A DNA stretch of 64,000 nt from Longimicrobiales bacterium (lineage in GTDB: Bacteria; Gemmatimonadota; Gemmatimonadetes; Longimicrobiales; Gaopeijiaceae): assembly GCA_965116645.1 (NCBI GenBank), contig OZ220702.1, forward strand, positions 481,929-545,928, in the 5' to 3' direction. The notes below the pieces were generated by a model, which saw only the letters and a program-made list of their open reading frames with translations, had not been told where the DNA came from and searched no databases. Each line of letters starts with the position of its first letter. Positions within the stretch are counted from its first letter, which is position 1. Position numbers and translations under genes: made by a program. Below, piece by piece: positions 10,712 through 37,543 of this stretch.

Positions 10712-11008
10712 ATGAACGGCGAACTCAGCCCCAACGCCCAGGCGATTCTGCTTCTGACGGCGCCGCTTCTGGTGGGAAGGTCCCCGACTTCCGTCAGGCC
10801 TCTGCCCCTTGGTGCCTACAACAAACTGGCGCTCGCGCTGGCCGACGAGTGGGGCGCCGAAGCATGGCCGGACCCGGGCACTCCGGATGCGTTGCGGCAA
10901 TTCGTGTCGAGCGGAGAAGGCCGGTCCAGGTTGGCGGAGGAGCCGGATGACTGCGAGCTTGGACCCACCATCGGCCCGCGACTCCCGTCCCCACCGCCCC
11001 CTTCTTGA
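10712..11008 (+). pseudogene. possible N-terminal fragment of a DprA/Smf-like gene
   Basis: LSPNAQAILLLTAPLLVG...RPLPLGAYNKLALALAD resembles the N-terminal extension of DprA-like proteins, but the ORF ends after 98 aa in Pro-rich sequence with no Rossmann domain. Confidence 0.25.
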
Positions 11009-11063
11009 CAGCGACCCGCCCGCTCCCGCATTTTGTTCGGCGACCGAACAAAGTCTGACCGGG
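11005..11063 (+). promoter_or_regulatory. promoter-operator module 1: TTGACA-N18-CA + 23-bp palindrome TTTTGTTCGG-CGA-CCGAACAAAG
   Basis: The -35-like TTGACA lies at 11005-11010 and the palindrome at 11031-11053, 33 nt upstream of ATG 11087. The module is near-identical to the one at 37485-37543 on the minus strand. Confidence 0.7.
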
Positions 11064-11086: not shown

Positions 11087-14000
11087 ATGAGTTCAATGCG
11101 GGCTGACACCGCACGCGTGGCCACCGTGGGCCTGACCGGGCCCCGCGCCCGCGCGACGCTCCGCCACCGGCCGCGCGCGCCGATTCTGCCCCTCCTCGCC
11201 CTGCTGTCCCTCACCCCCCCCACCCCCGCCGCCGCCCAGGCCACCCCCCCCGCGCTGCCCGTCATCGAGCTCGTCACGGACGCCACCGGCACGCGCCTCC
11301 GGGTCGACGGCACCGACATGATGGTGCAGGGCGTCAACTGGGACTACTTCCCGCGCGGCACGACCTACAACTACAACTTCTGGACCGAGCCCGACCACGT
11401 GATTGAGGCGGCGCTCGACCGCGAGATGTCGCTCCTCAAGGCGATGGGCGGCAACGCGATCCGCACCTACGTGGGGATCACGCCGCGGTGGGTGCGGCAC
11501 ATCTACGAGCGCTACGGGATCTACACGATCCTGAACCACGCGCTGGGCCGCTACGGCGTGACGGCCGACGGCGTCTACCAGGCCAACACGGACTACTCGG
11601 ACCCCCGCGCCCGCGCCGTGCTCATGGCCGAGGTAGAGGAGCTGGTGAGCGAGTTCAGGGACACGCCCGGCGTCCTCATGTGGCTTCTCGGCAACGAGAA
11701 CAACTACGGGCTGGTGTGGAGTTCGGCGGAGACCGAGGATCTGCCCGAGGAGGAGGCCAACACGGTCCGCGCGCGCCACATGTATTCGCTCTTCGGCGAG
11801 GTGGCGCGGCGCATCAAGGAGATCGACCCCACCCGCCCCGTCGCGATGGCCAACGGCGACCTCCAGTACCTCGACATCATCGCCGAGGAGGTGCCCGACC
11901 TGGACATCTTCGGCACCAACGTCTACCGGGGCGTCTCGTTCGGGGATCTCTTCCAGGAGGTCCGCGACGTGCTGAACCGCCCCGTGATGTTCACCGAGTT
12001 CGGCGCCGACGCCTGGAACGCGAAGAACATGCACGAGGACCAGGTCGTGCAGGCCCGGTACCTCATGGGCCAGTGGCGGGAGATCTACGAGCAGTCGGCG
12101 GGGAAGGGCCTGGTCGGCAACTCGATCGGGGGCGCCACCTTCCAGTGGACCGACGGCTGGTGGAAGTTCGGCCAGGAGGACCGGCTCGACATCCAGGACA
12201 CGAACGCGTCGTGGGCGAACGGCGGCTACGTCGAGGACTTCGTCGAGGGCGACAACAACATGAACGAGGAGTGGTGGGGGATCGTCGCCAAGGGCCCCAC
12301 CGACCCCAACAACCTCTACGAGCTCTACCCGCGCGCCGCCTACTACGCGCTCCAGGCTGCCTACGCCCTCGACCCGTACGCGCCGGGGACCGACCTCGCC
12401 GCAATCCGGGAGCACTTCGCCCGCATCGAGCCGGCCGACATGGGACTGCGGGCGCAGGGCGACCGGGCCGCGCTCCTCGCCACGGCGCTCGACCGCGTGC
12501 GCGTGAGCGGCATTCGCATCGAGCTGGAGACCTTCAACACCGGCGGCTCCCTGATCAGCACGCCCGAAGATCCGCCCGAGACGAATCCCACCTACCCGAG
12601 CTTCCGCGGCTTCGACCAGATGCAGTCCTTCTACGCCGACCTGACGGCGCAGCCGACCGCAAACATGCTCGCGACCGTGTCGTTCAACATGCTCGGCGAC
12701 GTTCCCACGAACCCGATCGACGAGATCTTCTACGAGAACCGGGGCCGTCCGCGCGACGTGCGCGGCCAGGGCGGGAACGTGACGCTGCAGGACATCGAGC
12801 GGCTCAAGGTCTACAGCGCCAGCGTGTCGTGGGACGACCGGTGGTTCCAGCTCGAGGGCTTCTACCGGTCCGGCCATTACCACTGGGGATACGAAGGCGA
12901 CTTCTTCGGACTCTACCAGGAGGCCAACTACGGGCCCAACATCGACACCTACAACGGGCTCGCGCCTGTCGGGATGGAGATCACCGGGAAGCGGTCGCTG
13001 AACGGGCTCAAGGTCGCGATCGGTCCCGAACTGTGGTGGGGAGCGAACCCCGCGGTGCTCGTCAAGCAGCAGGCCAGCCTCGGCCCCGTCCAGGGCACCG
13101 TCATCTACCAGGAGGATCTGGCCGAGGCGGGGCAGGCGTCGAGTTCGTTCGCCATTCCGCTGCCGCCCACCCGCAAGGCGACGGTGCACCTGACCGGCGT
13201 TCGCGGCGGACTGACCTGGGAGGTCGGCGGGATCATGTCGGGAAGCACGAAGGCCGGCCAGATGTTCCAGCTGGTCGACGGGGAGCCGGGTGCCCACGGC
13301 GTACTGCAGGACGAGATCCGGACCTCGGACGCGTTCGGCGCGAAGGCCAAGGTCAGCCTCACCAGGGGACGCCTCAACTGGTACCTGCAGGGCGCGGCGA
13401 TGGGCCTCGTGGCCGACGGCGGTCCCACACAGACGCAGACCTTCACCGGCTGGACGCTGAAGGACACCGGCAGCGGCAACCAGCGCAACCTGATCACCGG
13501 CCTCACCTGGCTGGCGGGCGACTGGCAGATCGCCCCCAACGTGCTCTGGCGCAAGCCCCTGGTGGGTCCGGTCCCGGCCAGCATCCCCGCCCCGGGACGT
13601 CCCCGGAACATTCTGGACGACCCCTTCGCGGTGCGCGGCAACCGCGAGACCCGCGCGGCCGAGCTCCTCGTCACCTACGACCCCACGCCCGCCACCTGGA
13701 TGTACAACTGGGACAGCGACCGGCGCGAGGACGCGGTGCTGGCCGCCTCGGTGGGGTTCGTGTACTTCAGCTTTCCCACCACCCAGGACGCCGGGATCGG
13801 GATCTTCGCCGACGGCCGCTCCACCTTCGCGTTTCCCGGCGCGCCGCCCGCGCGCAACCTCTGGGAGGTCAAGGCGCGGATCGTGTCGAAGCGGCGGGCG
13901 GGGCCCGGACTGATCGCGAACATCTTCGCGGGGACCGGCGAGCCCAACGGGGACGACGACCGCGTGGTCAGCCGCGCCGGCATCGACCTCCGCGTCATCC

Positions 14001-14317
14001 ACGGCTCGGTCAAGTTCCACGGCATCGCGAGCCAAAACGACTGGGGGCCCTACGACTACCACCGCGACTTCAACCTCACCTTCCCGCTGCAGCTGATGGG
14101 CGACATCTCGTATTCGCTCGGGCCGCCGGACTGGTTCGACCTGCCACAGACCCGCGTCGGGGTGCGCGCGACCATGCGGACGCTGAACGAGTACTCGCCG
14201 CGCTACTGTCCGGCACGGACGCCCGACGATTTCGGGAGGATGGAGTGCAACCCGGGCATCGGCGGGGACCCGGGGCGCGAGTGGGAGATCCGGACGTACC
14301 TGCACATCGGGATGTAG
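11087..14317 (+). CDS. secreted clan GH-A (beta/alpha)8 glycoside hydrolase (GH2-type TIM barrel-like) with ~650-aa C-terminal beta-rich region
   Basis: GGGAGGGGA SD precedes ATG 11087. Signal peptide (ILPLLALLSLTPPTPAAAQ). Catalytic-type motifs LLGNENNYG (acid/base NE) and MFTEFGADAW (nucleophile E). The C-terminal part has porin-like alternating strands. Confidence 0.75.
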   Translation: MSSMRADTARVATVGLTGPRARATLRHRPRAPILPLLALLSLTPPTPAAAQATPPALPVIELVTDATGTRLRVDGTDMMVQGVNWDYFPRGTTYNYNFWTEPDHVIEAALDREMSLLKAMGGNAIRTYVGITPRWVRHIYERYGIYTILNHALGRYGVTADGVYQANTDYSDPRARAVLMAEVEELVSEFRDTPGVLMWLLGNENNYGLVWSSAETEDLPEEEANTVRARHMYSLFGEVARRIKEIDPTRPVAMANGDLQYLDIIAEEVPDLDIFGTNVYRGVSFGDLFQEVRDVLNRPVMFTEFGADAWNAKNMHEDQVVQARYLMGQWREIYEQSAGKGLVGNSIGGATFQWTDGWWKFGQEDRLDIQDTNASWANGGYVEDFVEGDNNMNEEWWGIVAKGPTDPNNLYELYPRAAYYALQAAYALDPYAPGTDLAAIREHFARIEPADMGLRAQGDRAALLATALDRVRVSGIRIELETFNTGGSLISTPEDPPETNPTYPSFRGFDQMQSFYADLTAQPTANMLATVSFNMLGDVPTNPIDEIFYENRGRPRDVRGQGGNVTLQDIERLKVYSASVSWDDRWFQLEGFYRSGHYHWGYEGDFFGLYQEANYGPNIDTYNGLAPVGMEITGKRSLNGLKVAIGPELWWGANPAVLVKQQASLGPVQGTVIYQEDLAEAGQASSSFAIPLPPTRKATVHLTGVRGGLTWEVGGIMSGSTKAGQMFQLVDGEPGAHGVLQDEIRTSDAFGAKAKVSLTRGRLNWYLQGAAMGLVADGGPTQTQTFTGWTLKDTGSGNQRNLITGLTWLAGDWQIAPNVLWRKPLVGPVPASIPAPGRPRNILDDPFAVRGNRETRAAELLVTYDPTPATWMYNWDSDRREDAVLAASVGFVYFSFPTTQDAGIGIFADGRSTFAFPGAPPARNLWEVKARIVSKRRAGPGLIANIFAGTGEPNGDDDRVVSRAGIDLRVIHGSVKFHGIASQNDWGPYDYHRDFNLTFPLQLMGDISYSLGPPDWFDLPQTRVGVRATMRTLNEYSPRYCPARTPDDFGRMECNPGIGGDPGREWEIRTYLHIGM

Positions 14318-14322: not shown

Positions 14323-16146
14323 GTGGCCCCTCTCGTCGGCGCGGCCACCGAGCGGCGCGTGCGCGAACTCCTCGCCCGCATGACGCTCGACCAGAAGATC
14401 GGGCAGATGACGCAGCCGGAGCGGCTCCACGTCACGCCCGCCCAGGTGAAGCGGTACCACATCGGCTCGGTGCTGAGCGGCGGCGGTTCCTGCCCCGGCG
14501 ACAACCGTCCGGCCGACTGGGTCGCGATGAACGACGCGTACTGGGAGGCGTCGATGGAGGAGGACGCGGGCCACCTGGCGATCCCGGTCCTCTACGGGGT
14601 CGACGCGATCCACGGGAATGCGAACGTGCATGGCGCGACCGTCTTCCCGCACAACATCGGGCTGGGGGCCGCGCGCGATCCCGGGCTGGTCGAGCGGATC
14701 GGGCGCGTGACCGCGCGGGAGGTGCGGGCGGCGGGGGTGGACTGGACCTTTGCGCCGACGCTGGCCGTGGCGCAGGATCCGCGCTGGGGGCGGACGTACG
14801 AGAGCTACTCGGAGGATCCGGGGATCGTGGCCGAGTATGCGGGGCGGATTGTGGGGGGGTTGCAGGAGGGGGACATCGTCGCCTGCGCCAAGCACTGGGT
14901 GGGGGACGGGGGGACGCGCGCCGGCGTGGACCAGGGCGACACGGTGGTGGACGAGGCGGAGTTGCGGAGGGCGCATATCGCGCCGTACGCGCCGGCGCTT
15001 GAGGCCGGGGTGCTGACGGTGATGGTGTCGCTGAGCAGCTGGAACGGGAAGCAGTGTCACGCGCACCGGTACCTGATCCGTGACGTGCTGAAGCGGGAGA
15101 TGGGGTTCGGCGGCTTCGTGCTGTCGGACTGGAACGGCGTCGATCCGCTGGCCGACGACTACGGTGAGGCGGCGGCAGCCGCGGTGAACGCCGGCATCGA
15201 CATGGTGATGGTGCCGGAGAGGTGGCGGGATTTCATCGCCGGGCTGAAGCGTCAGGTGGAGCGTGGGGTCGTGCCGATTGGGCGGATCGACGACGCGGTC
15301 GCAAGGATTCTGCGCGTGAAGGTGGCGAGTGGGCTGTTCGAGCGGGGGCGGCCGGCAGCGCGGCGGGGGTCGAACGGGGTGGGGTTCGGGTCGCGCGAGC
15401 ACCGCGAGGTGGCGAGGGAGGCGGTGCGGAAGTCGCTGGTGCTGCTCAAGAACGAGGGAGGGGTACTGCCGCTCGACAAGGGCGCGCGGATCCTGGTGAC
15501 GGGCCCGGCCGCGCACGACCGCGGGAGGCAGTGCGGAGGCTTCACCGTCGAGTGGCAGGGGGTGACGGGCAATGAGGCGATCGTGGGGGGGACCTCGATC
15601 TGGGAAGGGATCCGTGCCGTCGCGCCGGGGGCGGTGTTGGGGGGTGGGGGGGAGGGGGACGCAGGCGATGGAGCGCAGGCCGAAGCGCCGGACGACGCGG
15701 CGCGCCGTTTCGACGTGGCGATCATCGTCATCGGCGAGCGCCCCTACGCCGAAGGGATGGGGGACATCCGAGAGCCGGGCCCGGTCCGGCCGGGGACGAA
15801 CCACCTGCCCGCAGGCCCGGGCGTGCTTCGGCCGTATGGAGACACGCTGGAACTTGCCGCGCTGCACCCGGAGTCCCTGCGGACCGTGCGGGCGCTGGCG
15901 GAGCAGGGTATCCCGGTGGTGACGGTGCTGGTATCCGGGCGGCCGATGATGGTGAGCGCGGAGCTGGCCGCATCGTCGGCCTTCGTGGCCGCGTGGCTGC
16001 CGGGCTCGGAGGGCGCGGGCGTGGCCGACGTGCTCTTCGGGGACCACGACTTCGTGGGGCGGTTGCCGATGGGGTGGCCGGGTGGGGGGGACGACGTGCT
16101 CTTCCCAAGGGGATACGGAATGCGGCTACTCGGAAGCGGGGTCTGA
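14323..16146 (+). CDS. bglX: GH3 beta-glucosidase / exo-beta-1,3-glucanase (BglX-like), no signal peptide
   Basis: RVRELLARMTLDQKIGQMTQPE, GVDAIHGNANVHGATVFPHNIGLGAARD, DWTFAPTLAVAQDPRWGRTYESYSEDP, FVLSDWNGV and KHWVGDGGT are GH3 hallmarks. Only the last part of the 1552-aa ORF is real. GTG 14323 start is uncertain (ATG 14380 is the alternative). Confidence 0.85.
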   Translation: MAPLVGAATERRVRELLARMTLDQKIGQMTQPERLHVTPAQVKRYHIGSVLSGGGSCPGDNRPADWVAMNDAYWEASMEEDAGHLAIPVLYGVDAIHGNANVHGATVFPHNIGLGAARDPGLVERIGRVTAREVRAAGVDWTFAPTLAVAQDPRWGRTYESYSEDPGIVAEYAGRIVGGLQEGDIVACAKHWVGDGGTRAGVDQGDTVVDEAELRRAHIAPYAPALEAGVLTVMVSLSSWNGKQCHAHRYLIRDVLKREMGFGGFVLSDWNGVDPLADDYGEAAAAAVNAGIDMVMVPERWRDFIAGLKRQVERGVVPIGRIDDAVARILRVKVASGLFERGRPAARRGSNGVGFGSREHREVAREAVRKSLVLLKNEGGVLPLDKGARILVTGPAAHDRGRQCGGFTVEWQGVTGNEAIVGGTSIWEGIRAVAPGAVLGGGGEGDAGDGAQAEAPDDAARRFDVAIIVIGERPYAEGMGDIREPGPVRPGTNHLPAGPGVLRPYGDTLELAALHPESLRTVRALAEQGIPVVTVLVSGRPMMVSAELAASSAFVAAWLPGSEGAGVADVLFGDHDFVGRLPMGWPGGGDDVLFPRGYGMRLLGSGV

Positions 16147-27959: not shown

Positions 27960-28011
27960 CAGAAGCCCCGAGGACGAAGAACGCCTCGGGGCTCCTACCT
28001 CAGCGTCTTGC
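27904..28011. repeat. 108-bp direct repeat, copy B
   Basis: Partner of 26546-26653. It contains the real stop and last codons of the symporter gene, the terminator hairpin and the higB remnant. Confidence 0.85.
27964..27993 (-). terminator. hairpin terminator of the glycan operon
   Basis: On the minus strand AGCCCCGAGG-N10-CCTCGGGGCT (10-bp GC-rich stem) starts 2 nt after the symporter stop and is followed by TCTGAGTTTC. Confidence 0.55.
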
Positions 28012-30265
28012 CCCGACCCCGCCGCCGCTCCAGCTCCGCCCTCACCTTGCCCGCGCTCTCCTCCGTGATCGGGTACCGGTACACGGCGTAGATCGCGATC
28101 CCCGACGCGATCAGCGGCACGAAGGCGTCGTAGAAGCGCAGCCAGAAGATCGTCCCTTCGGGCTGATTCGCGCCCAGGGAGGCGTCGAGTCCGGTCGAGT
28201 AGAGCAGGAAGCCGCCGAGCACGATCGCGCCGCTCTGGCCGAGTTTCACCATCCACCAGAACACCGATCCGAACATGCCTTCGCGCCGCTCACCGGTGGT
28301 TATCTCGTCCAGGTCCACCACATCGGCGATCATCGAGCCCATCAGGGTAAAGAGGCCGCCGAGCCCGAAGGCCAGGAACGGGGCCGGCAGCAGCGCCAGC
28401 AGGGGCTGGTCGGGCGTGTAACAGAACCACTTGAGCGCGTATCCGAGCATCGAGATGCCCGTCGACACGAAAAACGCGTTCTTCTTGCCGATTCTGGTGC
28501 CGAGCCAGGTGACGAGCGCGATCACCAGGAACCCCGTGACGGTGCCGAGCGTGCCGACCACGCCCGCGAGCGCCGCCCCCTCCGGGACGTTGCCGCCTGT
28601 GATGTAAAAGGCGAACACCCAGAACTGGAATTGGGAGATCATGATGAAGCTGTTGAACATCAGGAAGGTTGCGATGCAGAGCATCAGGAAGGGGCCGGTC
28701 CTGAGCGTCTGCCACAGGCCGCGCAGAAACTCCAGGGCGCTCTGCTCAATGCCGTGGGCTATCGTACGCTCATCCGTGCCTCGCGACCCGGAAGCCCCAC
28801 CTTCCGTACGCCCATCCGCACGTCGTCTCCCGGGGCCACGCCCGCCCGCGCGTTGATCCGCGCCGCCTGCCCGGGAGCCTCGGCGGTCCCGGCCCGCTTC
28901 GGCCGCGGCGCTTCCCCCGATCACGCGCTCCCGCAGAAAAATCGCCGGCAGCACGCCCAGCACGATCGTCGCCACGCAGATCGCGAGTGCGACGAAACGG
29001 GCGCCGTCCATCTGGTTCCGGAACCACACCGGGTTGGTCGCGATGACCAGGAACCAGGGCCCGATGACGAACACTGTGTTGGACACGAAGTTCTGCACGC
29101 CCATCAGGCGGGTGCGCTCGTTGTAGTCGGGGGTGAGTTCGTAGCCGAGCGCCACCCACGGCGTCGCGAAGATCGTGTAGGCCAGGAAGAACACCAGCGA
29201 CCCGATGAGGAAGTACCAGAAGTAGGCCCGCTGGCTCCAGCCCTCTCCCGTTTCGTCCGGAGTCCAGATGTCGATGTGGAGGTGCGTCATCGCACTGGCG
29301 TCGACCGGGTTGCTGCCGAAGTCGATTGTCGCGACGCGAAGGTTGGTGTAGTGCTTGACTTCGTCTCCGCCGGCCCGGGCATCGGCTACTTCGGCAACGT
29401 CCGGCCCGGCGGACCACGATCCGACCGGCACATCGTCGTAAGCGGCGCTGAAGAGGGAGATCACGTCCTCGGGCGGGACCCCGGGGGCCGGTGCTCCGGT
29501 GACAGGGACGGTGGCGCCCTCGATGTCCTGGGCGGGAGGCACCGCCGTCTGGAGACCGGCTGCGGCCGGGCCGACGCCCTCGACGCCCTGGTTGGGAGAT
29601 GCCGACGCCGGGAGTGCGCCCACCGCCGCGCCGCCCAGGCGGTAGAAATACACGTTGTCGACATAGACCTCGGTCAGGTCGCCCGAGATCACCATCTGCG
29701 CCAGGTGTTCGCGCGTGGCGAGCCCGTCGAAGTCGCTCAGCGGCACGTCCACGCTCACCCATGCGCCCGTCACCAGCGTGGGGGGCAGGACGGCGACCTC
29801 GTCCTCGACATCGTCGACCACCTCCACCGTGAAGATCTCCCTCAGCGCATCGCCTGCGGCCCGCAGCCAGCCCACGGGTTCGTCCGTCTCGCCGCTGTAG
29901 ACCCCGTCGGCGCCGTGGTCGACCAGCTTGAGCCGCAGCTGTGTCGGCGCCGGCATCTGCCACAGCAGCAGGAAGATGACCCCCGCCGAAATCGCGCCCG
30001 CGAAGAGGAACGGGCGCCGCCGCCCCCAGCGCGACTTCGTCTTGTCCGACACGAAGCCGACGAGCGGATCGGTGAGTGCGTCGAAGAAGCGCGGCAGGCC
30101 GCCGAGCAGGCCGACGGCCCGGAAGTCGACGCCGAGCGCCAGGGTCAGTACGGCCATCATGTTGCCGATGCCCTGGCCCAGCAGATTGTTCGTGAACCCG
30201 CCGATCCCGTAGATAATCTTGTGTGGGAACGATACCCGGTCTTCGGGAGCGGTCCGCTTGCTCAC
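27995..30265 (-). CDS. GPH-family (MelB/YicJ-like) glycoside:cation symporter with a ~240-aa CBM-like insertion in loop 3-4 and an Arg/Gly-rich central loop
   Basis: YGIGGFTNNLL, FDALTDPLVGFVSDKTKSRWGRRRPF (the GPH loop 2-3 motif), ALGYELTPDYNERTRL, and multiple hydrophobic helices. GTG start lies 4 nt after the GH16 stop. Confidence 0.85.
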   Translation of the reverse strand: MSKRTAPEDRVSFPHKIIYGIGGFTNNLLGQGIGNMMAVLTLALGVDFRAVGLLGGLPRFFDALTDPLVGFVSDKTKSRWGRRRPFLFAGAISAGVIFLLLWQMPAPTQLRLKLVDHGADGVYSGETDEPVGWLRAAGDALREIFTVEVVDDVEDEVAVLPPTLVTGAWVSVDVPLSDFDGLATREHLAQMVISGDLTEVYVDNVYFYRLGGAAVGALPASASPNQGVEGVGPAAAGLQTAVPPAQDIEGATVPVTGAPAPGVPPEDVISLFSAAYDDVPVGSWSAGPDVAEVADARAGGDEVKHYTNLRVATIDFGSNPVDASAMTHLHIDIWTPDETGEGWSQRAYFWYFLIGSLVFFLAYTIFATPWVALGYELTPDYNERTRLMGVQNFVSNTVFVIGPWFLVIATNPVWFRNQMDGARFVALAICVATIVLGVLPAIFLRERVIGGSAAAEAGRDRRGSRAGGADQRAGGRGPGRRRADGRTEGGASGSRGTDERTIAHGIEQSALEFLRGLWQTLRTGPFLMLCIATFLMFNSFIMISQFQFWVFAFYITGGNVPEGAALAGVVGTLGTVTGFLVIALVTWLGTRIGKKNAFFVSTGISMLGYALKWFCYTPDQPLLALLPAPFLAFGLGGLFTLMGSMIADVVDLDEITTGERREGMFGSVFWWMVKLGQSGAIVLGGFLLYSTGLDASLGANQPEGTIFWLRFYDAFVPLIASGIAIYAVYRYPITEESAGKVRAELERRRGRGKTLR
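29237..29950 (-). other. inserted domain: circularly permuted copy of the lipoprotein glycan-binding-like repeat
   Basis: aa ~106-343 read LRLKLVDHGADG...TGAWVSVDVPLSDFDGLATREHLAQMVISGDLTEVYVDNVYFYR, then a P/A/G linker, then EDVISLFSAAYDDVPVGSW...KHYTNLRVATIDFGSNPVDASAMTHLHIDIWTPDE. Confidence 0.8.
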
Positions 30266-30269: not shown

Positions 30270-31151
30270 TCACTCGGCGCGGTAGACGCGCACCCAGTCG
30301 ACGAGCATGGTCTGTGGGAAGGTCGTGGACGCGTTCGGTGGTCCGACGAAGGTGCCGCCCACGGCGACGTTCAGGAGCAGGAAGAAGGGGTGGTCAAAGA
30401 CCCACCGGCCGGGCGGATCGTCCCGGTCCACGGCGTGGTAGCGCTCTCCGTCCATGAACCAGACGATGCGCTCCTCCGTCCATTCGATCGCGAACTCGTG
30501 GAATCCGGTGTCGAAACGGGCACCGGTGAGCGCGTAGCGTGCGCCGATTCCGCCGCCACCGGAATACCTGGGCCCGTGAACGGTTCCGTGTACGATCGTC
30601 GGCTCCTGGCCGCGGTACTCCATGATGTCGATCTCTCCGCAATCCGGCCAACCCACGGTGCCGAAGTCGCTGCCGAGCATCCAGAAGGCGGGCCAGATGC
30701 CCTGCCCGCTGGGCAGCCGGATGCGCGCTTCGAAGCGGCCATACGCCTGCTCGAAAAGCCCCTCGGTCTTGATGCGACCCGACGTGTAGGCGCTCCCCTG
30801 GTAGGATTCGCGGCGAGCTGTGATCGCCAGGTTGCCGTTGCCGTCGAGTGACACGTTTTCGGGACGGTCGGTGTCGTACTCCAGCTGCCTGTTGCCCCAG
30901 TCGGTGCCGATGTCGAAGGTCCAGTTGGCGGGATTGGGAAGCTGTCCGGCCGGGCCGTCGAATTCGTCGCTCCAGACCAATGTCCAGTCGGGCTCGGGCT
31001 CGGCGCCGAAGCTGTCGCATGCCAGGGACAGGAGGATCAGCGGAAGCATCCCGGGGACGAGCTCTCGCGAGCACCGAGCCCTTCGAATGCCGCGGCGCCC
31101 CTGTCCACGGGCAGTCAGGGCGAGGATAAGCCGGCGGCACACGCCGGTCAT
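30270..31151 (-). CDS. GH16 endo-beta-1,3-glucanase (laminarinase), lipoprotein
   Basis: WSDEFDG, GRFEARIRLPSGQGIWPAFWMLG and the catalytic GEIDIMEYRG (E-x-D-x-x-E) motif. Lipobox LLSLAC. ATGA overlap with the ROK stop (alternative start at 31049). Confidence 0.9.
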   Translation of the reverse strand: MTGVCRRLILALTARGQGRRGIRRARCSRELVPGMLPLILLSLACDSFGAEPEPDWTLVWSDEFDGPAGQLPNPANWTFDIGTDWGNRQLEYDTDRPENVSLDGNGNLAITARRESYQGSAYTSGRIKTEGLFEQAYGRFEARIRLPSGQGIWPAFWMLGSDFGTVGWPDCGEIDIMEYRGQEPTIVHGTVHGPRYSGGGGIGARYALTGARFDTGFHEFAIEWTEERIVWFMDGERYHAVDRDDPPGRWVFDHPFFLLLNVAVGGTFVGPPNASTTFPQTMLVDWVRVYRAE

Positions 31152-32365
31152 GCCGCAATCACACCGGGAAACAGCCGGGGATTGGCCAGGGCAGCGACCA
31201 GGACGTGCGTGGCGGCGCCCAGAGCTACCGCGCGCTCGCCCAGGTCGCTGGTGCGGATGTCAGAAGCGGCTGCGGAGGCCACGAGCGTGCGGGTGGCGAC
31301 GGCTTCGCGCAGCGGGTTGACCAGCCGGTCGCCCGCCCGTGCCAGGCTCCCTCCAAGGATCACCGATCCGGGGTTCAGGAGGTTCAGCACCCCGGCGACC
31401 ACGATTCCCAGACGTACCGCGGCCTCGTTGACGACCTCCAGCGCGAGCGGGTCGTCGGCGAGGGCGGCGTCCTCGATCGCGCGGATTTCGGGCTCGGTTC
31501 CGGCCAGGGCGCTGTCGGGGAAGCGGCTCATGAGGCTCCTGGCCCGGTCGACGAGCTGGCGCGTGCCCACGAAGGTCGCCAGGCAGCCGCGGTTCCCGCA
31601 CACGCACTTGGGCCCGCTCGGATCGATCGCCACGTGACCGATTTCGCCCGCGACCCCCGTGGCCCCACGGTAGATCTCCCCGCCGATCATGATCCCCGCC
31701 CCCACCCCGGTGGCGACCTTCAGGTACACGAAATCGTCGATTCCCACCGCCTCCCCCCACCACCGCTCCGCCACCGCCCCCAGATTGGCGTCGTTGTCCA
31801 CGAAGACGGGTATCCCGAATACGCTGTTGAGACGGTCCAGCACGCCGTGCCCACGCCATGCGGGGAGAACCCGTTCCAGCACCCGGTCCGGCGACCCGGG
31901 ATCGACCGGGCTGGGCACGGCCACGCCGATTCCCATGAGCCGCGACCGGTCCCCGTTCCACTCGGCCAGACAAACCTCGCCCAGTCCGGTGATCAGCGCC
32001 TCGGCGCCCTTGGGATCACTGCGCACGGGGTGGGCGCGTTCCCGCCAGGCCAGCGTCCGCCCCCGCAGGTCCGTGAGGATCACCGAAATGTGCGTGGCTC
32101 CCACGTCCACCCCCAGGATCACGCCCGCATCGTCCTGGAACCCCACCAGAATGGGACGCCGGCCTCCACGGCTCTCGCCGGCGCCCACCTCCGCCACCAG
32201 CCCAGTGCCGAGGAGCCGCCCCACCACCTCCGAGATGGTGGAGCGGGACCTCCCGGTGTTGCGCGCGATCTCGGCGCGCGAAACCTCCCGTCGGCGCCAG
32301 ACGAGGTTGAGGACCGTCCTGGCCAAGTCGTCGTCCGGCGGCGCAACCGCCTCGCGCGGCATCAT
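31148..32365 (-). CDS. ROK-family transcriptional repressor (wHTH + sugar-kinase-like domain)
   Basis: wHTH VSRAEIARNTGRSRSTISEVVGRLLGTGLV. ROK core GVDVGATHISV, and the Zn motif GHVAIDPSGPKCVCGNRGCLA. ATG 32365 overlaps the upstream stop (ATGA). Confidence 0.9.
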   Translation of the reverse strand: MMPREAVAPPDDDLARTVLNLVWRRREVSRAEIARNTGRSRSTISEVVGRLLGTGLVAEVGAGESRGGRRPILVGFQDDAGVILGVDVGATHISVILTDLRGRTLAWRERAHPVRSDPKGAEALITGLGEVCLAEWNGDRSRLMGIGVAVPSPVDPGSPDRVLERVLPAWRGHGVLDRLNSVFGIPVFVDNDANLGAVAERWWGEAVGIDDFVYLKVATGVGAGIMIGGEIYRGATGVAGEIGHVAIDPSGPKCVCGNRGCLATFVGTRQLVDRARSLMSRFPDSALAGTEPEIRAIEDAALADDPLALEVVNEAAVRLGIVVAGVLNLLNPGSVILGGSLARAGDRLVNPLREAVATRTLVASAAASDIRTSDLGERAVALGAATHVLVAALANPRLFPGVIAA

Positions 32366-35300
32366 TTGCGCAGGTAAACGTTGTCGACGAACACGGTATT
32401 GGGGTCGCCCGAGAGGATCAGTTGCGCGAGATGTCCCCGCGCCGTGAGTGCCGTGAAGTCCGATAGCGGGATATCGTAGCTTAGCCACTGGCCGGTCGCG
32501 AGCGCCGGGTCCGAACTTGCGGTCAGCGAGATCTCATGTTCGGTGTCGTCGCCTCCGCCGAACGCGCCATCGGCACCGAAGTCGACCAGCTTGACCTTGA
32601 AGGCGGCGGGGGCGGCAGTGGGGTCGGGGGTCCAGATGTCGATGCGGAAATGGGTCATCCCGGTGGCGTCGACGGTATTCGAGGTGAACTCGATACCCGC
32701 GAAGACGAGGTTCGTGTACTTCCTGGTGGCGTTTCCGGCGATCTGCACATCCTCGACATCGGCCTGGTCCCACGAGGCGGACCAGGTGTCGACCGTCACG
32801 TCGGTGTAGGCGTCGCTGAAGAAGGAGATTACGCTGTCCGCGTGGTGCGACGGGGTGGGCGCCGCCTCGGAAGGCTCGCTCGGAGACACCGCATAGAAGT
32901 AGACATTGTCCAGGAACACCGTGTTCGGGTCGCCGGAGATGATCAGCTGGGCGAGGTGTTCGCGGGCAGCCAGGTTGGTCATGTCGGCGAACGCCAGGTC
33001 GTAGCTGACCCACTGGCCGGTGGCCAGCGCGGGATCGGAGGCGGCGGTAAGCGTGACCTCGTGCTCCGTGTCGTCGCCTCCGGCGAACGCGCCGTCGGCC
33101 CCGAAATCGACCAGCTTGACCTTGAACGCCGCGTTCACCGTCTCGTCGGGCGTCCAGATGTCCATGTGGAAGTGGGTCATCCCGGCGGCGTCGATGGGCG
33201 CGGACGTGAACTCGATGCCCGCGAAGACGAGATTCGTGTACTTCTTCACGGTGTCAGCCTCGATCACCACGTCCTCGACGTCGGCCTGGTCCCACGACGC
33301 GGACCAGGTGTCCACCGCGGCGTCGGTGTACGGGCCGCTGAAGAGCGAGATCACGGCGTCCGCCGCGTGCGTCGGGGTCGGAGCGGGCGCGCTCGGTGCT
33401 GCCGGCGCCGCCCCCTTCCGGAAGTACACGTTGTCGACGTAGAGCGTATTCGGGTCGCCTGAAATGATCAGCTGCGCCAGGTGTTCCGTTTCGGCGAGGC
33501 CCGTGAAGTCCGCGAGCGCCAGGTCCAGTTGCACCCATTGCTCCGACACCAGGCCGTCGGCGGCCGTTATGGTGACTTCGTGCTCGGTGTCGTCGCCGCC
33601 CCCGTCCCAGACGCCGTTTGCGCCGAAGTCCACCAGCTTGACCTTGAACGCCGCGTTCACCGTCTCGTCCGGCGTCCAGATGTCCATGCGGAAGTGCGTC
33701 ATGTCGGCTGCGTTGACGGTCGCCGAGGTGAATTCGATCCCGGCGAACACCAGGCCGGTGTACTTCTTGGTGGCGTTGCCCGCGACCTCCACGTCCTCGA
33801 CGGTCGCCACATCCCAGTCCGCCGACCAGGTGTCCACCGTCACGTCGTCGTATGCGTCGCTGTAGAGCGAAATCACGTCGTCGGCCGCGTCGCCGGGCGC
33901 CGGGGCCGCCTCGGTCGGCACGGGCTCCGGAGGCGGCGCCTCGCCGCGCCGGAAGTAGACGTTGTCCACGTAGACCGTGTTCGGGTCGCCCGAGATGATC
34001 AGCTGCGCCAGGTGTTCCCTCGCCGCGAGCCCGGGGAAGTCCGTGAAGGGCAGGTCCAGCTGCACCCACTCTTCCGTCGAGAGCCCGTCGTCCGTGTTGA
34101 GGACAACCTCGTGCTCACTGTCGTCGCCGCCCCCGAACGTGCCGTCCGCGCCGAAGTCCACGAGCTTCACTCTGAACGCTGCGGCCGCCGTCTCGTCCGG
34201 CGTCCAGATGTCCATCCGGAAGTGGGTCGCGTGCGTCGCGTCCACGGTCTGCGAGGTGAACTCGACGCCTGCAAAGGTCAGGTTCGTGTATCTCTTTGCC
34301 GCGTTCCCCGCGATCTCCACGTCCGCGACGTCGGCCTGATCCCAATCGGCGGACCAGGTGTCCACCGTCACGTCTTCGTAGGCGTCGCTGAAGAGCGAGG
34401 TGACGTCCTCGGCCGCGTGGGTCGGCGCCGGCGGCCCCGAGGTGGGCGCGGCCTGCAGCATGACCGTGACCGCCGCGCCCGCGCTCGCGCTTCCCGATGT
34501 CGCGGTGACCGTCGTCGCCCCGTCCGCGACCGCGGTGACCAGCCCGTTCGCATCCACCGTCGCAACCGCCTCGTCCGCCGAGGCCCAGCTCACCGTCGCC
34601 CCGTCGATCACGTTCCCGTTCGCGTCGGCCACCTCAGCCGCGAGCTGCGCCGTCTCGCCGGCTACGATGAGGTGCACCGAGTCGGGCGCGACCGTGACAG
34701 CCGCGGCTTCCTGCTCGACCGTGACGGTTCCGGTTCCGCTCAGGCTGCCCGACGTCGCGGTGATCGTCGCCGTGCCGTTGGCGACCGCGGTGACGAGCCC
34801 GTCGGCGTCGACCGTGGCCACCGCCTCGTCCCCGGAGGACCAGCTCACCGAGGCGCCGGAGATCGCGTTCCCGTTCGCATCCTGCACCTCGGCCGTGAAC
34901 TGGGCCGTCTCTCCGACGGCAGAGAGAGTCACCGACCCGGGTGTGACCGACACCGCCGTCGCAGCCTGCGCCACGCTGACGGACGCCGTACCGCTCGCTG
35001 TGCCCGAGGTCGCCGTAATCGTCGCCGTGCCGTTGCCCGCCGCGGTGACGAGCCCCGTTGTGTTCACCGACGCGACCGCGTTGTCGCTCGAGCTCCAGGA
35101 TACCGACGCACCGGCCATCACCTCCCCGTTCTGGTCGCGGACCGTGGCGCCGAGCAAGACGGTCTCGCCCAGCGATGAAAGCGAAGCCGTGGCGGGGGCA
35201 ATCGTGACCGTCGTGGCCACGGGCGGCTCGACGGGATCGTCGCCGCAGGCCAGCATTCCGCACACAAGGAGCGCGGCGAGCGCGCCGACCCTGCCCCGTG

Positions 35301-35373
35301 GGTATGAGAGGCGGCGGGGGGAAGATCCGGGCGAGAGCCGGCCCGGGACTGAGCGGTGGCTGAGCGACGTCAT
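32362..35373 (-). CDS. cell-envelope lipoprotein: 3 x Big_2 Ig-like domains + 4 x ~165-aa CBM-like repeats (putative glycan-binding protein)
   Basis: Lipobox GMLAC. Three units of the type VTIAPATASLSSLGETVLLGATVRDQNGEV...VSWSSSDNAVASV...GNGTATITAT. Four units of the type DVISLFSDAYxDVTVDTWSAxWDQADVEDV..KKYTNLVFAGIEFTS..MTHFRMDIWTPDET..FKVKLVDFGADG..EHLAQLIISGDPNTVYVDNVYF. Confidence 0.85.
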   Translation of the reverse strand: MTSLSHRSVPGRLSPGSSPRRLSYPRGRVGALAALLVCGMLACGDDPVEPPVATTVTIAPATASLSSLGETVLLGATVRDQNGEVMAGASVSWSSSDNAVASVNTTGLVTAAGNGTATITATSGTASGTASVSVAQAATAVSVTPGSVTLSAVGETAQFTAEVQDANGNAISGASVSWSSGDEAVATVDADGLVTAVANGTATITATSGSLSGTGTVTVEQEAAAVTVAPDSVHLIVAGETAQLAAEVADANGNVIDGATVSWASADEAVATVDANGLVTAVADGATTVTATSGSASAGAAVTVMLQAAPTSGPPAPTHAAEDVTSLFSDAYEDVTVDTWSADWDQADVADVEIAGNAAKRYTNLTFAGVEFTSQTVDATHATHFRMDIWTPDETAAAAFRVKLVDFGADGTFGGGDDSEHEVVLNTDDGLSTEEWVQLDLPFTDFPGLAAREHLAQLIISGDPNTVYVDNVYFRRGEAPPPEPVPTEAAPAPGDAADDVISLYSDAYDDVTVDTWSADWDVATVEDVEVAGNATKKYTGLVFAGIEFTSATVNAADMTHFRMDIWTPDETVNAAFKVKLVDFGANGVWDGGGDDTEHEVTITAADGLVSEQWVQLDLALADFTGLAETEHLAQLIISGDPNTLYVDNVYFRKGAAPAAPSAPAPTPTHAADAVISLFSGPYTDAAVDTWSASWDQADVEDVVIEADTVKKYTNLVFAGIEFTSAPIDAAGMTHFHMDIWTPDETVNAAFKVKLVDFGADGAFAGGDDTEHEVTLTAASDPALATGQWVSYDLAFADMTNLAAREHLAQLIISGDPNTVFLDNVYFYAVSPSEPSEAAPTPSHHADSVISFFSDAYTDVTVDTWSASWDQADVEDVQIAGNATRKYTNLVFAGIEFTSNTVDATGMTHFRIDIWTPDPTAAPAAFKVKLVDFGADGAFGGGDDTEHEISLTASSDPALATGQWLSYDIPLSDFTALTARGHLAQLILSGDPNTVFVDNVYLRK
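32365..34422 (-). repeat. four tandem ~500-bp coding repeats (CBM-like domain units)
   Basis: The protein-level repeats are clearly visible. Each unit is separated by a Pro/Ala-rich linker. Confidence 0.85.
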
Positions 35374-37421
35374 GGGTTGTCTCCGATTGGATTGCTACTG
35401 TTGAATTGCGCGGGCGACATTTGTGCAGGCCCTGCTGCTGGCCGCCGGAAATAGATGTTGTCGACGTAAACGGTGTTCAGATCCCCCGAGATGATCAGCT
35501 GGGCGAGGTGTTCCCTCCCCGTGAGGTTGGCGAAATCCGCGAGCGGGAGATTCAACGACACCCACGCTCCGGTCGCCAGCCCTCCGGCGGCCGTGATCGT
35601 GACCTCGTGTTCGCTGTCGTCCCCCCCGCCGAACCCTCCATCCGCACCGAAGTCCACCAGCTTCACCTTGAAGCCCGCGGCCGCAGTCTCGTCCGGAGTC
35701 CAGATGTCCATCCGGAAGTGCGTCATGCCTCTGACGTTCAGGGTCTGCGAAGTGAACTCGATTCCCGCAAACGACAGGTTCGTGTACTTCTTCGCTCCGT
35801 TCCCCCCGATTGCCACGTCCTCCACGTCGGCCTGGTCCCACTCCGCCGACCAGGTGTCGACCGTCGCGTCGTCATAAGCGTCGCTGAAGAGCGAGATCAC
35901 GTTCGCCGCCGGGTCCTGCGGGGTAGGCGCGGGGTCCGGTGGACCGGTCGGATCGACGGGGGTCTCGCCCCGAAAGAAGTAGATGTTGTCCAGGTAGACG
36001 GTCCGGCTCGACCCCGAGATGATCAGCTGGGCGAGATGGCCGCGGCCCGCCAGCCCGCTGAAGGCCGAGAGCGGAATGTCCAGGACGTTCCACGTTCCGG
36101 GCGCGATCGGCGTCGGCGACACCGGAGTGAATGTGACTTCGTGTTCGCTGTCGTCCCCCCCGCCGAAGACGCCATTCGCGCCGAAGTCCACAAGCTTGAT
36201 GCGGAAGGTCGTCGCGTCGTTGGTCCAGAGGTCGACGTGGAGGTGCGTCATGGAAGTGGCGTCGATCAGCGACGAGGTGAACTCGACGCCCGCAAAGGAC
36301 AGATTGGTGTACTTCTTGACCGGATTCCCGGCGACCACCACGTCGTCCACGTCGGCCTGGTCCCACTCGGCCGACCAGGTGTCGACGTTCACGTCCTCGT
36401 AGGCGTTGCTGAAGAGGGAGATGACATCTTCGGCTGGCACCATCGGCACCGGGGGCGCGTCTTCGGGCGGCGTCTCGACGTTGACGGTGAGCGCTCCCGC
36501 GGCGGGGGTCGGTCCCAGCGTCGCCGTTATCGTGGCGGTGCCGGGGCGGACCAGCGTGATGGTGCCATCGGCTTCCACCGACGCGACGCCCGGGTCCGAA
36601 GAGGTGAAGGTGAAGTACGCGGATGCGGCGCCCACGGTCACGTCGGCCCCGTTGACGTCGAAGGTCACGCGCGTGCCGCCGACCGCCAGGGTGCCGCCCA
36701 CCTCGCTGCTGACCGTCCGTGTGTCGATCACCGGCTGCGGATTGATGATCGTGCCGAGGCGCTCGAACTGCACGTCGTCGAAGTAGAGCTCGTAGCCGAC
36801 CGGATACTCGGAAGCGTCCGCGACGAGGAAGAGGCCCGGCTCTTCGGTCAGCAGGGAGGGCAGCGGCAGGGGGACCGCGTACTTCGTCCAGCGAGTCGAG
36901 AGCGACAGGTTGTCGAGCGTGGCCGGGAAGCGGGAGGTGCCGGTGTTGTCGTCCCCGAAACCAACCCGGTCCAGCGTCGCGGCCGTGCTCGCGCGGGCCC
37001 AGAAGGTCAGGGCGTCAAACCCCGAGAGGTCGCGCGGCACGGTCGAGAAGAAGGCGCCTCCGGCGTAGCCGCCCGTCGGGTCGTTTGGTGCCGGAACGGT
37101 GAACTTCAACGCCGCGGTCCCGCGGTACACCAGGTCGCGCTCGATATCGAGGGCGTCGACCTTGGATCCCCCGAAGGCCCCGTAGTGGAGCCCCGGCGCG
37201 AAGTCGTCGTAGAAGACTCCCGGGTCGGGCGGGAAGGCCGCCGGGTCGAGTTCGGTCAGATCGCGTTCGCAGGCGGTGGCGAAGGCGAGCGGGAGGAGGG
37301 CGACGCTCCAGGCTCGGGAGCCGGGTCCCGATGGCCGGATCGGGCGTTCCCGCAGCCGGAATGGACCGCGCCGCGACCGGGGTCCGCTACCCGATGGCCG
37401 GCGCGCGGTGCTCGCAGTCAT
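35370..37421 (-). CDS. cell-envelope lipoprotein: N-terminal beta-sandwich-like domain + Big_2 + 2 x CBM-like repeats
   Basis: Lipobox AFATAC and SD AGAGG before the ATG. Big_2-like FTFTSSDPGVASVEADGTITLVRPGTATITAT. Two copies of the same repeat as in the downstream gene (EDVISLFSNAYEDVNVDTWSAEWDQADV... and ANVISLFSDAYDDATVDTWSAEWDQADV...). Confidence 0.85.
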   Translation of the reverse strand: MTASTARRPSGSGPRSRRGPFRLRERPIRPSGPGSRAWSVALLPLAFATACERDLTELDPAAFPPDPGVFYDDFAPGLHYGAFGGSKVDALDIERDLVYRGTAALKFTVPAPNDPTGGYAGGAFFSTVPRDLSGFDALTFWARASTAATLDRVGFGDDNTGTSRFPATLDNLSLSTRWTKYAVPLPLPSLLTEEPGLFLVADASEYPVGYELYFDDVQFERLGTIINPQPVIDTRTVSSEVGGTLAVGGTRVTFDVNGADVTVGAASAYFTFTSSDPGVASVEADGTITLVRPGTATITATLGPTPAAGALTVNVETPPEDAPPVPMVPAEDVISLFSNAYEDVNVDTWSAEWDQADVDDVVVAGNPVKKYTNLSFAGVEFTSSLIDATSMTHLHVDLWTNDATTFRIKLVDFGANGVFGGGDDSEHEVTFTPVSPTPIAPGTWNVLDIPLSAFSGLAGRGHLAQLIISGSSRTVYLDNIYFFRGETPVDPTGPPDPAPTPQDPAANVISLFSDAYDDATVDTWSAEWDQADVEDVAIGGNGAKKYTNLSFAGIEFTSQTLNVRGMTHFRMDIWTPDETAAAGFKVKLVDFGADGGFGGGDDSEHEVTITAAGGLATGAWVSLNLPLADFANLTGREHLAQLIISGDLNTVYVDNIYFRRPAAGPAQMSPAQFNSSNPIGDNP

Positions 37422-37484: not shown

Positions 37485-37543
37485 CCCCGTCAGACTTTGT
37501 TCGGTCGCCGAACAAAGTGCGGAGACAGGTCGCGCGGTGTCAA
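37485..37543 (-). promoter_or_regulatory. promoter-operator module 2: TTGACA-N18-CA + palindrome CTTTGTTCGG-CGA-CCGAACAAAG
   Basis: Read on the minus strand: TTGACA (37543-37538), an 18-nt spacer, CA, the palindrome (37517-37495), then TCTGACGGGG. This has the same architecture and nearly the same sequence as 11005-11063. It lies ~75 nt upstream of ATG 37421. Confidence 0.7.

Follow-up and report, generated by a model that had tools for sequence, protein, structure and literature searches.

Two glycan gene clusters in a 64,000-nt stretch of DNA from a Longimicrobiales bacterium (contig OZ220702.1; "the window" means this whole stretch) are each preceded by TTGACA and, at a fixed distance from it, by a nearly identical palindrome. 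What does this shared element do, and which protein reads it? The palindrome is probably the operator of an autoregulated repressor of the ROK family, encoded in one of the two clusters. This operator would lie over the -10 and start-site region of both promoters and control a two-operon regulon for the use of beta-glucan of the laminarin type. In the following sections, the element is described in the window, in genomes at large, and in loci chosen by protein alone. Then the fit of the ROK protein, the likely mechanism, and the competing explanations are considered.

Proposed operator copies in the window

Exact copies of the 22-mer TTTGTTCGGCGACCGAACAAAG lie at 11032-11053 (+) and 37495-37516 (-), both of them 21 nt past TTGACA. 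Two exact copies in 64 kb are not due to chance because none are expected (100 shuffles). The full element is an odd-centred palindrome of 25 bp, ACTTTGTTCGG-nnn-CCGAACAAAGT. Both copies have the same order of parts, namely TTGACA, an 18-nt non-conserved spacer, CA, the palindrome, and TCTGAC(c/g)GGG. The likeness in TCTGAC(s)GGG, 3' of the palindrome, is lineage-specific and not a general feature. The core of copy 2 is a perfect 10+3+10 palindrome of 23 bp, CTTTGTTCGG CGA CCGAACAAAG, that extends to 11+3+11 (25 bp) with A/T at +/-12 (37518-37494). Indexed from its central base, copy 2 reads A C TTTGTTCGG CGA CCGAACAAA G T over 37518-37494. Copy 1 (11030-11054) has a single arm mismatch, T for C at -11. 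Searches of the window with TTTGTT-N9-AACAAA (up to two mismatches) and with the 22-position consensus (up to six mismatches) returned no third copy.

An original prediction, made from the window alone, had quoted both upstream regions, and these are present exactly as quoted at 11005 (+) and 37543 (-). The 10-bp arms that it described exist in copy 2. However, the arms as typed there are 9-mers, and copy 1 is mismatched at -11. The parts of the two cassettes are as follows.

11005..11010, plus strand: -35-like hexamer TTGACA of the GH158-like/GH3 promoter (copy 1), read from the sequence, with conserved fixed spacing
11029..11034, plus strand: candidate non-canonical -10, CATTTT, after an 18-nt spacer, overlapping the left operator arm; placed by spacing
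11030..11054, no strand assigned: operator copy 1, ATTTTGTTCGG CGA CCGAACAAAGT; centre 11042, 45 nt before the ATG at 11087
37538..37543, minus strand: -35-like hexamer TTGACA of the lipoprotein-ROK-GH16-MFS operon (copy 2), read from the sequence, with conserved spacing
37514..37519, minus strand: candidate -10, CACTTT, after an 18-nt spacer; placed by spacing
37494..37518, no strand assigned: operator copy 2, ACTTTGTTCGG CGA CCGAACAAAGT in minus-strand reading; perfect 25-bp palindrome, centre 37506, 85 nt before the ATG at 37421

Distribution and conservation of the element

The motif TTTGTTCGG-NNN-CCGAACAAA was searched in one genome per species (about 186,000 species, 596 Gb). It matched 115 loci, compared with about 9 expected by chance (an estimate that assumes uniform base composition). 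With the window included, 100 of 117 sites have TTGAC 26-28 nt before the left arm (TTTGTT) on exactly one side. Allowing TTGAC 26-29 nt upstream, 99 of the 115 genome loci can be oriented in this way, and nearly all oriented sites belong to Gemmatimonadota, mostly Longimicrobiales. The first gene downstream in these 99 loci is an orthologue of the GH158-like (glycoside hydrolase family 158) gene in 50, an orthologue of the lipoprotein genes bigA/bigB in 42, the ROK gene in one (L012), and another glycan gene in two (L068 and L100); four loci are cut short. Among individual loci, L068 has ABC-ATPase-GH1-GH158-like genes downstream of the site, and the site in L100 (Gemmatimonadaceae) precedes an apparent SusC-like receptor (sequence read by eye). 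In L045, TTGCAT replaces TTGACA upstream of a GH158-like gene, and in L022 the site adjoins a BigA-like gene.

Complete chromosomes carry exactly two sites (14 chromosomes) or one (two chromosomes). The element is not a dispersed repeat because there are only one or two sites per complete chromosome, at orthologous promoters. The genome-wide scan proposed in the original prediction thus gave no sign of the many unrelated, non-promoter positions that a dispersed repeat would occupy. The element is therefore specific to a clade and to promoters, and it does not form a repeat family. About nine singletons fall in unrelated phyla, a number equal to the chance expectation of about 9.

Matches of other kinds were also found in the scan. 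Four matches in Verrucomicrobiota (L010, L029, L042, and L069) were considered as a second regulon and rejected, with no ROK or glycan genes nearby. They represent one orthologous hairpin, (A/T)TTTGTTCGG-nnn-CCGAACAAA(T/A), which immediately follows the stop codon of an mrp/apbC-like gene; a pyrR-pyrB-like cluster lies about 320-340 nt further downstream (genes named from their N-termini). This hairpin has no connection with ROK and could be a terminator or a pyr leader element. Two gemmatimonadotal matches (L058 and L073) were considered as sites within rRNA. This was rejected because Rfam gave no match and the 21-mer lies inside an open reading frame (ORF) for a DnaE2-type polymerase. The exact 21-mer encodes TFVRSPNKV in this error-prone polymerase ORF of about 1190 aa, and the match is a coding coincidence common to two related genomes rather than a regulatory site. 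An outlying oriented site occurs in the Ignavibacteriaceae metagenome-assembled genome (MAG) contig JARRKF010000019.1 (L052, site 2777), where TTGACA-N21-operator stands in an AT-rich context upstream of a GH158-like orthologue (55-63% identity). No ROK gene was found in the examined part of this contig. The presence of this site in another phylum reflects either deep conservation or horizontal transfer of the gene plus its promoter.

The footprint of conservation was taken from 76 identically spaced sites, with the consensus C-TTGACA-N15-cCG-C-ACTTTGTTCGG-nnn-CCGAACAAAGT. Four positions were not forced by the search pattern and are nonetheless conserved: A at -12 (100%), C at -11 (99%), G at +11 (100%), and T at +12 (92%). 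The C before TTGACA is kept in 95% of the sites, and the final A of TTGACA in 100%. The sequence is near-random in the spacer, at the three central bases, and past +12. This pattern, with free spacer, centre, and flanks around unforced positions conserved at 92-100%, bears out the earlier argument for selection on a protein-binding site. Just 5' of the left arm, cCG-C is also conserved and has no mirror image on the right side. This asymmetry suggests a promoter-related function of the left side.

Loci chosen by protein alone

Since the 115 loci had been found by motif, two further samples were defined by protein only. The first was a metagenome scan with the ROK protein, in which sites were counted at up to 5 mismatches in 20 positions. 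In 17 loci with ROK orthologues of 46-89% identity, 17 sites were found in 11 loci, compared with 0 in shuffles. The ROK-GH16-MFS core is kept throughout these orthologue loci. One of them, L120 (ROK orthologue of 74% identity), carries one exact site at the lipoprotein promoter and another at the GH158-like promoter. Variant sites accompany distant ROK orthologues (46-63% identity), and most of them are altered on both arms. For example, the L127 site reads GTTCGTTCGG-TGA-ATGAACGAAG (arms GTTCGTTCGG..TGAACGAAG) at the same distance after TTGACA. The regulators of the L127-type clade carry SSGGRRP and STVSAIV, and those of the exact-site clade carry SRGGRRP and STISEVV. The other 63 loci, with paralogues of at most 40% identity and a few partial matches, showed no enrichment (6 sites, compared with 0-6 in shuffles). 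Two of these six sites belong to a partial orthologue of 49% identity (L159). Another (L133) is XylR-like, TTAGTTTGTT..ACAAACTAA, and lies directly upstream of its ROK gene.

The second sample consisted of ten ROK homologues (64-92% identity) found by exact protein look-up, which gave 12 loci, 10 of them with the relevant upstream region. The site is present at the expected promoters in nine of these ten, with TTGACA at the fixed spacing. The 17 sites in these loci comprise 10 that are exact, 4 with one mismatch, and 3 with three mismatches. Across 18 protein-ascertained sites, substitutions occur at -12, -2, +2, +4, and +12 only; none was found at +/-3 or from +/-5 to +/-11, and no substitution has a compensating change on the opposite arm. 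The one locus of the ten without the full site is L203 (ena ERZ25067264 ctg835890, 382286-403521), a decayed locus that retains only the right half-site CCGAACAAAC. Its ROK gene is intact. Only a GH16 fragment and a truncated lipoprotein remain, alongside inserted IS21/Mu-type transposase genes, an AbiEii gene, and an integrase.

The ROK protein as the candidate binder

The ROK protein (31148..32365) matches Pfam ROK (1.1e-58) and, weakly, HTH_27/TrmB. It has an N-terminal winged helix-turn-helix (HTH) domain and the zinc motif H..CVCGNRGC. Its nearest NCBIfam models are NagC and Mlc, both far under their equivalog cut-offs (192 compared with 650 bits). Its nearest entries in the PDB are the repressors Lmo0178, VC2007, and Mlc, and the alignment with them is full-length. 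The linker reads ESRGGRRP in the window, and S(R/S)GGRRP in nearly all orthologues compared.

Operators of this family follow known rules. NagC, Mlc, and Bacillus XylR sites are odd-centred, and their only invariants are TT/AA at +/-5,6 (PMC4288165). In NagC/XylR-type sites, C/G at +/-11 is read by a Gly/Arg-rich linker after the HTH, which is STGGRR in NagC (PMC4288165). Seven Thermotoga ROK regulators all bind 23-bp palindromes 27-138 nt upstream of start codons, as verified by electrophoretic mobility shift assay (EMSA) (PMC3553997). The element described here has the same geometry, an odd-centred 10+3+10 palindrome (23 bp) that can be extended to 25 bp. It has TT at -6,-5 and AA at +5,+6, with no mismatch there in the 18 protein-ascertained sites. 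The C/G pair at +/-11 is also present, at the frequencies given above, except for the T at -11 in window copy 1. It goes together with a NagC-type GGRR linker in the regulator.

The ROK gene lies inside or beside the regulated operon in the loci that reach far enough. Together with the variant sites that accompany orthologues and not paralogues, and with the published operator rules, this linkage favours the ROK protein as the predicted binder, as the original prediction had proposed. Its statement that XylR operators of Firmicutes have similar inverted arms was essentially right. The published form is GTTT N7 AAAC, and the operator ACTTAGTTTAAGCAATAGACAAAGT agrees with the consensus here at 15 of 25 positions (PMC9104551).

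Promoter architecture and proposed mechanism

Scanning for the sigma-70 consensus around both copies found no complete promoter and no canonical -10. The hexamer 18 nt past TTGACA is CA(T/C)TTT, which matches TATAAT at 2-3 of 6 positions, including A2 and T6. The promoter that was originally claimed is thus well founded in its -35-like hexamer, which is perfect and rigidly spaced, but not in a canonical -10. The claimed overlap of the palindrome with the -10/+1 region agrees with the fixed TTGAC spacing, which would place the palindrome at about -12 to +13. The asymmetric conservation of cCG-CAC(TTT) suggests that the left operator arm may also serve as a non-canonical -10; sigma factor and repressor would then be rivals for one set of bases. 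The -7 motif of Bacteroidetes promoters is TAnnTTTG. An element of this type in the left arm was considered and rejected as a general explanation; the Ignavibacteriaceae site TAACTTTG conforms to it, but neither the Gemmatimonadota consensus GCACTTTG nor the variant clade (TAGTTCG) does. A terminator scan around both copies and at the operon ends found no site and no U-tract, and a sigma-70 scan at the operon ends found no match.

In the mechanism proposed here, the winged HTH and the Gly/Arg-rich GGRR linker would hold a ROK dimer on the 25-bp palindrome ACTTTGTTCGG-nnn-CCGAACAAAGT. The site starts 20 nt after the consensus -35 and would cover the weak -10 and the start site, so that the bound repressor would exclude RNA polymerase by steric repression. 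The cassette of copy 1 would drive a secreted GH158-like glucanase and a GH3 beta-glucosidase. The cassette of copy 2 would drive two Ig-like surface lipoproteins, the ROK gene, a GH16 endo-glucanase, and a GPH-type symporter. As the ROK gene is inside one of the regulated operons, the regulator would control its own level. At the cell surface, the Ig-like lipoproteins and GH16 would act on the glucan; oligosaccharides would then enter through the symporter and be converted to glucose by the cytoplasmic GH3. A sugar of the pathway (glucose, laminaribiose, or a short beta-gluco-oligosaccharide) would then bind the ROK sugar domain, release the protein from DNA, and induce both operons. By analogy with BglR of Thermotoga, the effector could be glucose or a short oligosaccharide. 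Within this model, we infer that ROK binds the site and represses rather than activates, and likewise where transcription starts, which sugar induces, and which glucan is the substrate.

Weighing the alternatives

Several observations weigh against an autoregulated ROK repressor. The linkage of the ROK gene to the site is correlative, and an unlinked transcription factor is formally possible. With no canonical -10, the promoter is assigned solely from the conserved TTGACA and its spacing. Position alone gives the sign of regulation, and NagC can also activate. The substrate is likewise indirect because the GH158 assignment is weak. Finally, the operon in L064 has the site, yet no ROK gene lies between its bigB and GH16 genes, so action in trans is required there. 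The MAG concerned, SB0661_bin_2, has two lipoprotein-GH16-MFS operons with the exact operator, L064 (VXLT01000160.1) and L072 (VXLT01000322.1). The examined part of L072, a contig of 12,093 bp, shows NaS and lipoprotein genes only. The ROK homologue P0003 (93% identity) maps to a 12,093-bp contig, the same size as that of L072. Action in trans at L064 is plausible, given a site on this second contig of the same MAG and the mapping of P0003.

The alternative that survives best, though it is unlikely, is that the palindrome is the operator of another transcription factor, either an unlinked protein of the LacI/GntR type or the LuxR-type response regulator at 19940-20596. In its favour, ROK binding to the palindrome is a prediction from sequence, and a PAS histidine kinase and the LuxR response regulator lie between the operons in the window and in its close relative L196. 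However, L198-L202, L206, L207, and L120 keep the site but have no such pair between their operons; in the window the pair was the only other regulator found, and it is not a conserved neighbour. The ROK gene is present in the loci that extend far enough, and variant sites are enriched with its orthologues and not with its paralogues. LacI sites are typically even-centred with a CG core. The odd centre, TT/AA at +/-5,6, and C/G at +/-11 form the published ROK signature (PMC4288165), and the site much resembles a verified operator of the ROK protein XylR.

It is very unlikely that ROK binds the palindrome as an activator or dual regulator that offsets the poor -10. NagC activates some promoters, and the -10 here is non-canonical. 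The laminarin loci of marine Bacteroidota are also run by an activator, BguR (bioRxiv 10.64898/2026.01.10.698779). However, the site follows the -35 and spans the predicted -10/+1, as is typical of steric repression, whereas activator sites normally lie at or upstream of the -35. Additionally, the characterised sugar-catabolic ROK regulators with such sites, XylR, Mlc, Thermotoga BglR, and Lmo0178, are sugar-released repressors (PMC3553997; PMC9104551).

A role of the palindrome as RNA is highly improbable. It would act as a leader hairpin of 10-11 bp that affects mRNA stability, translation, or attenuation, and as RNA the sequence does form a stable stem-loop (-21.8 and -23.8 kcal/mol; z about -2.3 to -2.6). 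However, with TTGACA as the -35, transcription would start near the centre of the palindrome and the left arm would be outside the RNA. When the left arm is omitted, the structure of the leader is unremarkable (z = 0.1 and 0.75). The arms are kept as sequence and not as pairing: substitutions in the 18 protein-ascertained sites are uncompensated, and three sites have an in-stem C.A mismatch. There is no U-tract, and either chromosomal orientation is used with TTGACA always on the upstream side. Rfam gave no match at the gathering threshold across the whole window.

The idea that the similarity is left over from duplication or gene conversion, or that it reflects a dispersed repeat of the repetitive extragenic palindromic (REP) or miniature inverted-repeat transposable element (MITE) kind without a regulatory role, is effectively refuted by the comparative data: window identity does run a few bases past the palindrome (TCTGAC-GGG), so that conversion between promoters is conceivable, but the one or two copies per complete genome are always at orthologous promoters, the element is kept across ROK orthologues down to about 56-64% identity while spacers are randomised, and the decayed operon of L203 is reduced to a half-site.

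Relation to known regulators

The autoregulated ROK repressor favoured here resembles several known systems. As in NagC/Mlc of Enterobacteria, the site is an odd-centred palindrome of about 23 bp with TT/AA at +/-5,6 that overlaps the candidate promoter, and the regulator gene is predicted to be autoregulated. It further resembles high-affinity NagC sites, in which C/G at +/-11 is paired with the GGRR linker (PMC4288165). Unlike those of NagC/Mlc, which are A/T-rich and degenerate, the arms contain G+C and are almost invariant (CTTTGTTCGG). The regulons also differ, serving, as predicted, beta-glucan use here and amino-sugar or glucose uptake there, in another phylum.

XylR of Bacillus/Paenibacillus shares the 25-bp geometry, the promoter overlap, and, in the model proposed here, a repressor released by sugar (PMC9104551). 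The EMSA-verified operator of Paenibacillus polymyxa XylR has outer arms, ACTT.GTT / AC.AAGT, that are nearly identical to those of the consensus. Unlike XylR, the inner arm is CGG/CCG rather than TAA/xTA, and no tandem overlapping operators were seen. The effector is presumably a gluco-sugar, unlike the xylose of XylR.

The closest functional analogue is BglR of Thermotoga maritima (TM0032), a ROK repressor of a laminarin/beta-glucoside operon. The operon that contains its gene is preceded by a 23-bp palindrome, from which glucose and cellobiose release BglR in vitro (PMC3553997). Its operator, AATTTCTTTCTGAGGAAGATAGA, differs from the one found here, where uptake is assigned to an MFS symporter. 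The transporter of the Thermotoga BglR operon is an ABC system.

By sequence, the best structural relative is Listeria Lmo0178 (PDB 5f7p/q/r), which matches at 1.8e-46 over the full length and has the linker STGGRR, compared with SRGGRR here. Lmo0178 is likewise a local repressor of a glycan-utilisation operon (cited so in PMC9104551), but of an alpha-glucan pathway.

The enzymes recall the Bacteroides beta-1,3-glucan utilisation locus (1,3GUL) and the laminarin polysaccharide utilisation loci (PULs) of marine Bacteroidota, which combine GH16, GH158 (GH158-like here), and GH3 with surface glycan-binding lipoproteins (PMC7157763). Unlike in these loci, uptake in the two window operons is assigned to a GPH/MFS symporter, with no SusC/SusD. 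The regulators differ as well. The ROK protein is cytoplasmic, 1,3GUL has a hybrid two-component sensor (PMC7157763), and BguR is a membrane one-component activator (bioRxiv 10.64898/2026.01.10.698779).

The two operons and neighbouring genes

The window has a G+C content of about 68%, and the closest relatives of its proteins are found in MAGs of Gemmatimonadota, Longimicrobiales, and Candidatus Palauibacter. The genes of the two operons are the following.

11087..14317, plus strand: GH158-like secreted TIM-barrel glycosidase of clan GH-A, 1076 aa, candidate endo-beta-1,3-glucanase (Pfam Glyco_hydro_2_C, 3.3e-12; PDB 9oro (GH158), 1.8e-7)
14323..16146, plus strand: GH3 beta-glucosidase, start at GTG 14323 or ATG 14380 (Pfam GH3 N and C domains)
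35370..37421, minus strand: BigA, putative surface lipoprotein of 683 aa with a Big_2 domain and two modules of about 160 aa (family scan, repeat comparison)
32362..35373, minus strand: BigB, BigA paralogue of 1003 aa with three Big_2 domains and 3-4 modules of about 160 aa; 4-nt overlap with its neighbours
31148..32365, minus strand: ROK-family regulator, 405 aa, proposed binder; winged HTH, linker ESRGGRRP, zinc motif H..CxCGxxGC (Pfam ROK, 1.1e-58)
30270..31151, minus strand: GH16 endo-beta-glucanase, probable lipoprotein (Pfam GH16, 2.9e-25; NCBIfam endo-1,3-1,4-beta-glycanase)
27995..30265, minus strand: GPH/MFS_2 symporter, 756 aa, with a module of about 240 aa between the third and fourth transmembrane segments (TM3 and TM4) (family scans, AlphaFold model)

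The gene context given in the original prediction stands for both clusters, except that its single lipoprotein is in fact two paralogous Big_2 proteins, BigA and BigB. The copy 2 operon (BigA, BigB, ROK, GH16, and the symporter) is tightly packed, with 4-nt overlaps or 4-nt gaps. No signal peptide was seen in the GH3 beta-glucosidase, whose nearest NCBIfam model is an exo-beta-1,3/1,6-glucosidase with a score under the cut-off. The GH158 assignment comes from a weak PDB sequence match (E = 1.8e-7 over about 200 residues) and a GH2_C-type TIM barrel. GH16, GH158, and GH3 make up the enzyme complement of the Bacteroides beta-1,3-glucan utilisation locus (PMC7157763), and extracellular GH16_3 laminarinases are reported to be common in marine Gemmatimonadota (PMC11316326). 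A family scan of both window operons found no TonB-dependent transporter, no SusC/SusD, and no hybrid two-component system (HTCS) regulator. Because the SusC/SusD pair and an HTCS are absent from the two operons, the system is not a canonical PUL.

Upstream of the GH158-like operon lies a gene for a 760-aa DUF5916 + CBM9-like protein (7475-9757, +), a neighbour also present in L200, L202, and L204. It has no operator of its own and may represent an additional glycan-related gene that the ROK regulon does not include.

Between the two convergent operons lie about 11.8 kb of DNA with lower G+C content (0.63-0.66; 16146-27995). This region encodes an AAA_14/DUF4143 ATPase, a PAS histidine kinase with a LuxR-type response regulator, and several small ORFs without a family match. 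In relatives, the gap between the operons ranges from a few bp to about 1 kb (L199, L120) and up to about 40 kb (OZ242201.1). The PAS kinase/LuxR pair is common to the window and L196 only. The region looks like a variable insertion hotspot.

An inserted module in the symporter

The symporter carries a beta-rich insert of about 240 aa between TM3 and TM4 (residues ~105-340; DNA ~29246-29950), and its NCBIfam matches are split accordingly (residues 11-102 and 516-748). In the AlphaFold model (predicted local distance difference test (pLDDT) 79; predicted template modelling score (pTM) 0.80), TM3 (83-101) is followed by beta-strands (110-208), a disordered linker (209-262), further beta-strands (268-335), and TM4 (345-377). 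The insert is homologous (E ~1e-40) to the ~160-aa module that occurs twice in BigA (35445-36443, -) and 3-4 times in BigB (32893-33894, -, plus flanking repeats), in copies that are 60-72% identical. In the lipoproteins the module reads VISLFS..DIWTPDET-FRVKLVD..VDNVYF. In the transporter, its halves are swapped, with a Pro/Ala/Gly-rich linker between them. By sequence, the insert looks like a circular permutation that would bring the ends together for insertion into a loop.

No significant match to the ~160-aa module was found in Pfam (permissive), NCBIfam, or PDB; a weak discoidin match had E = 0.056. An AlphaFold model of the module from a 4-sequence alignment was unusable (pLDDT 48), and a Foldseek search with the whole-transporter model returned MFS cores only, with no match for the insert. 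The best 120 homologues of the symporter (54-100% identity, Gemmatimonadota) are 553-759 aa long, and all but three have at least 674 aa. More distant operons (ROK identity 64-65%; L206/L207) encode a plain MFS protein of 513 aa without the insert. The insert may be a built-in glycan-binding domain. More speculatively, the locus might represent a self-contained, SusC/D-independent beta-glucan system found only in Gemmatimonadota, in which the module is a new glycan-binding domain and capture, import, and ROK sensing form one co-regulated unit; at present this is a tentative idea that we consider doubtful.

Significance

The regulon is undescribed, but its kind is well known; it extends known biology and introduces no new mechanism. 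A search of one literature library, which included PMC10469786 and PMC11316326, found no link of Longimicrobiales or Palauibacter to a ROK regulator. GH16_3 laminarinases have been reported in Gemmatimonadota/Longimicrobiales without discussion of their regulation (PMC11316326). Laminarin is a major marine carbon pool, and the regulation of its use is only beginning to be understood, so far in Bacteroidota, where the known regulators are HTCS sensors (PMC7157763) and the BguR activator (bioRxiv 10.64898/2026.01.10.698779). Gemmatimonadota and Longimicrobiales are abundant in sediments and sponges and largely uncultured. For these bacteria, the analysis yields a precise cis-element (ACTTTGTTCGG-N3-CCGAACAAAGT, 20 nt after TTGACA), a candidate regulator, and a two-operon regulon in dozens of species. 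These could help to annotate beta-glucan regulons in MAGs, to interpret metatranscriptomes, and to design in vitro binding tests of the ROK protein that do not depend on culture.

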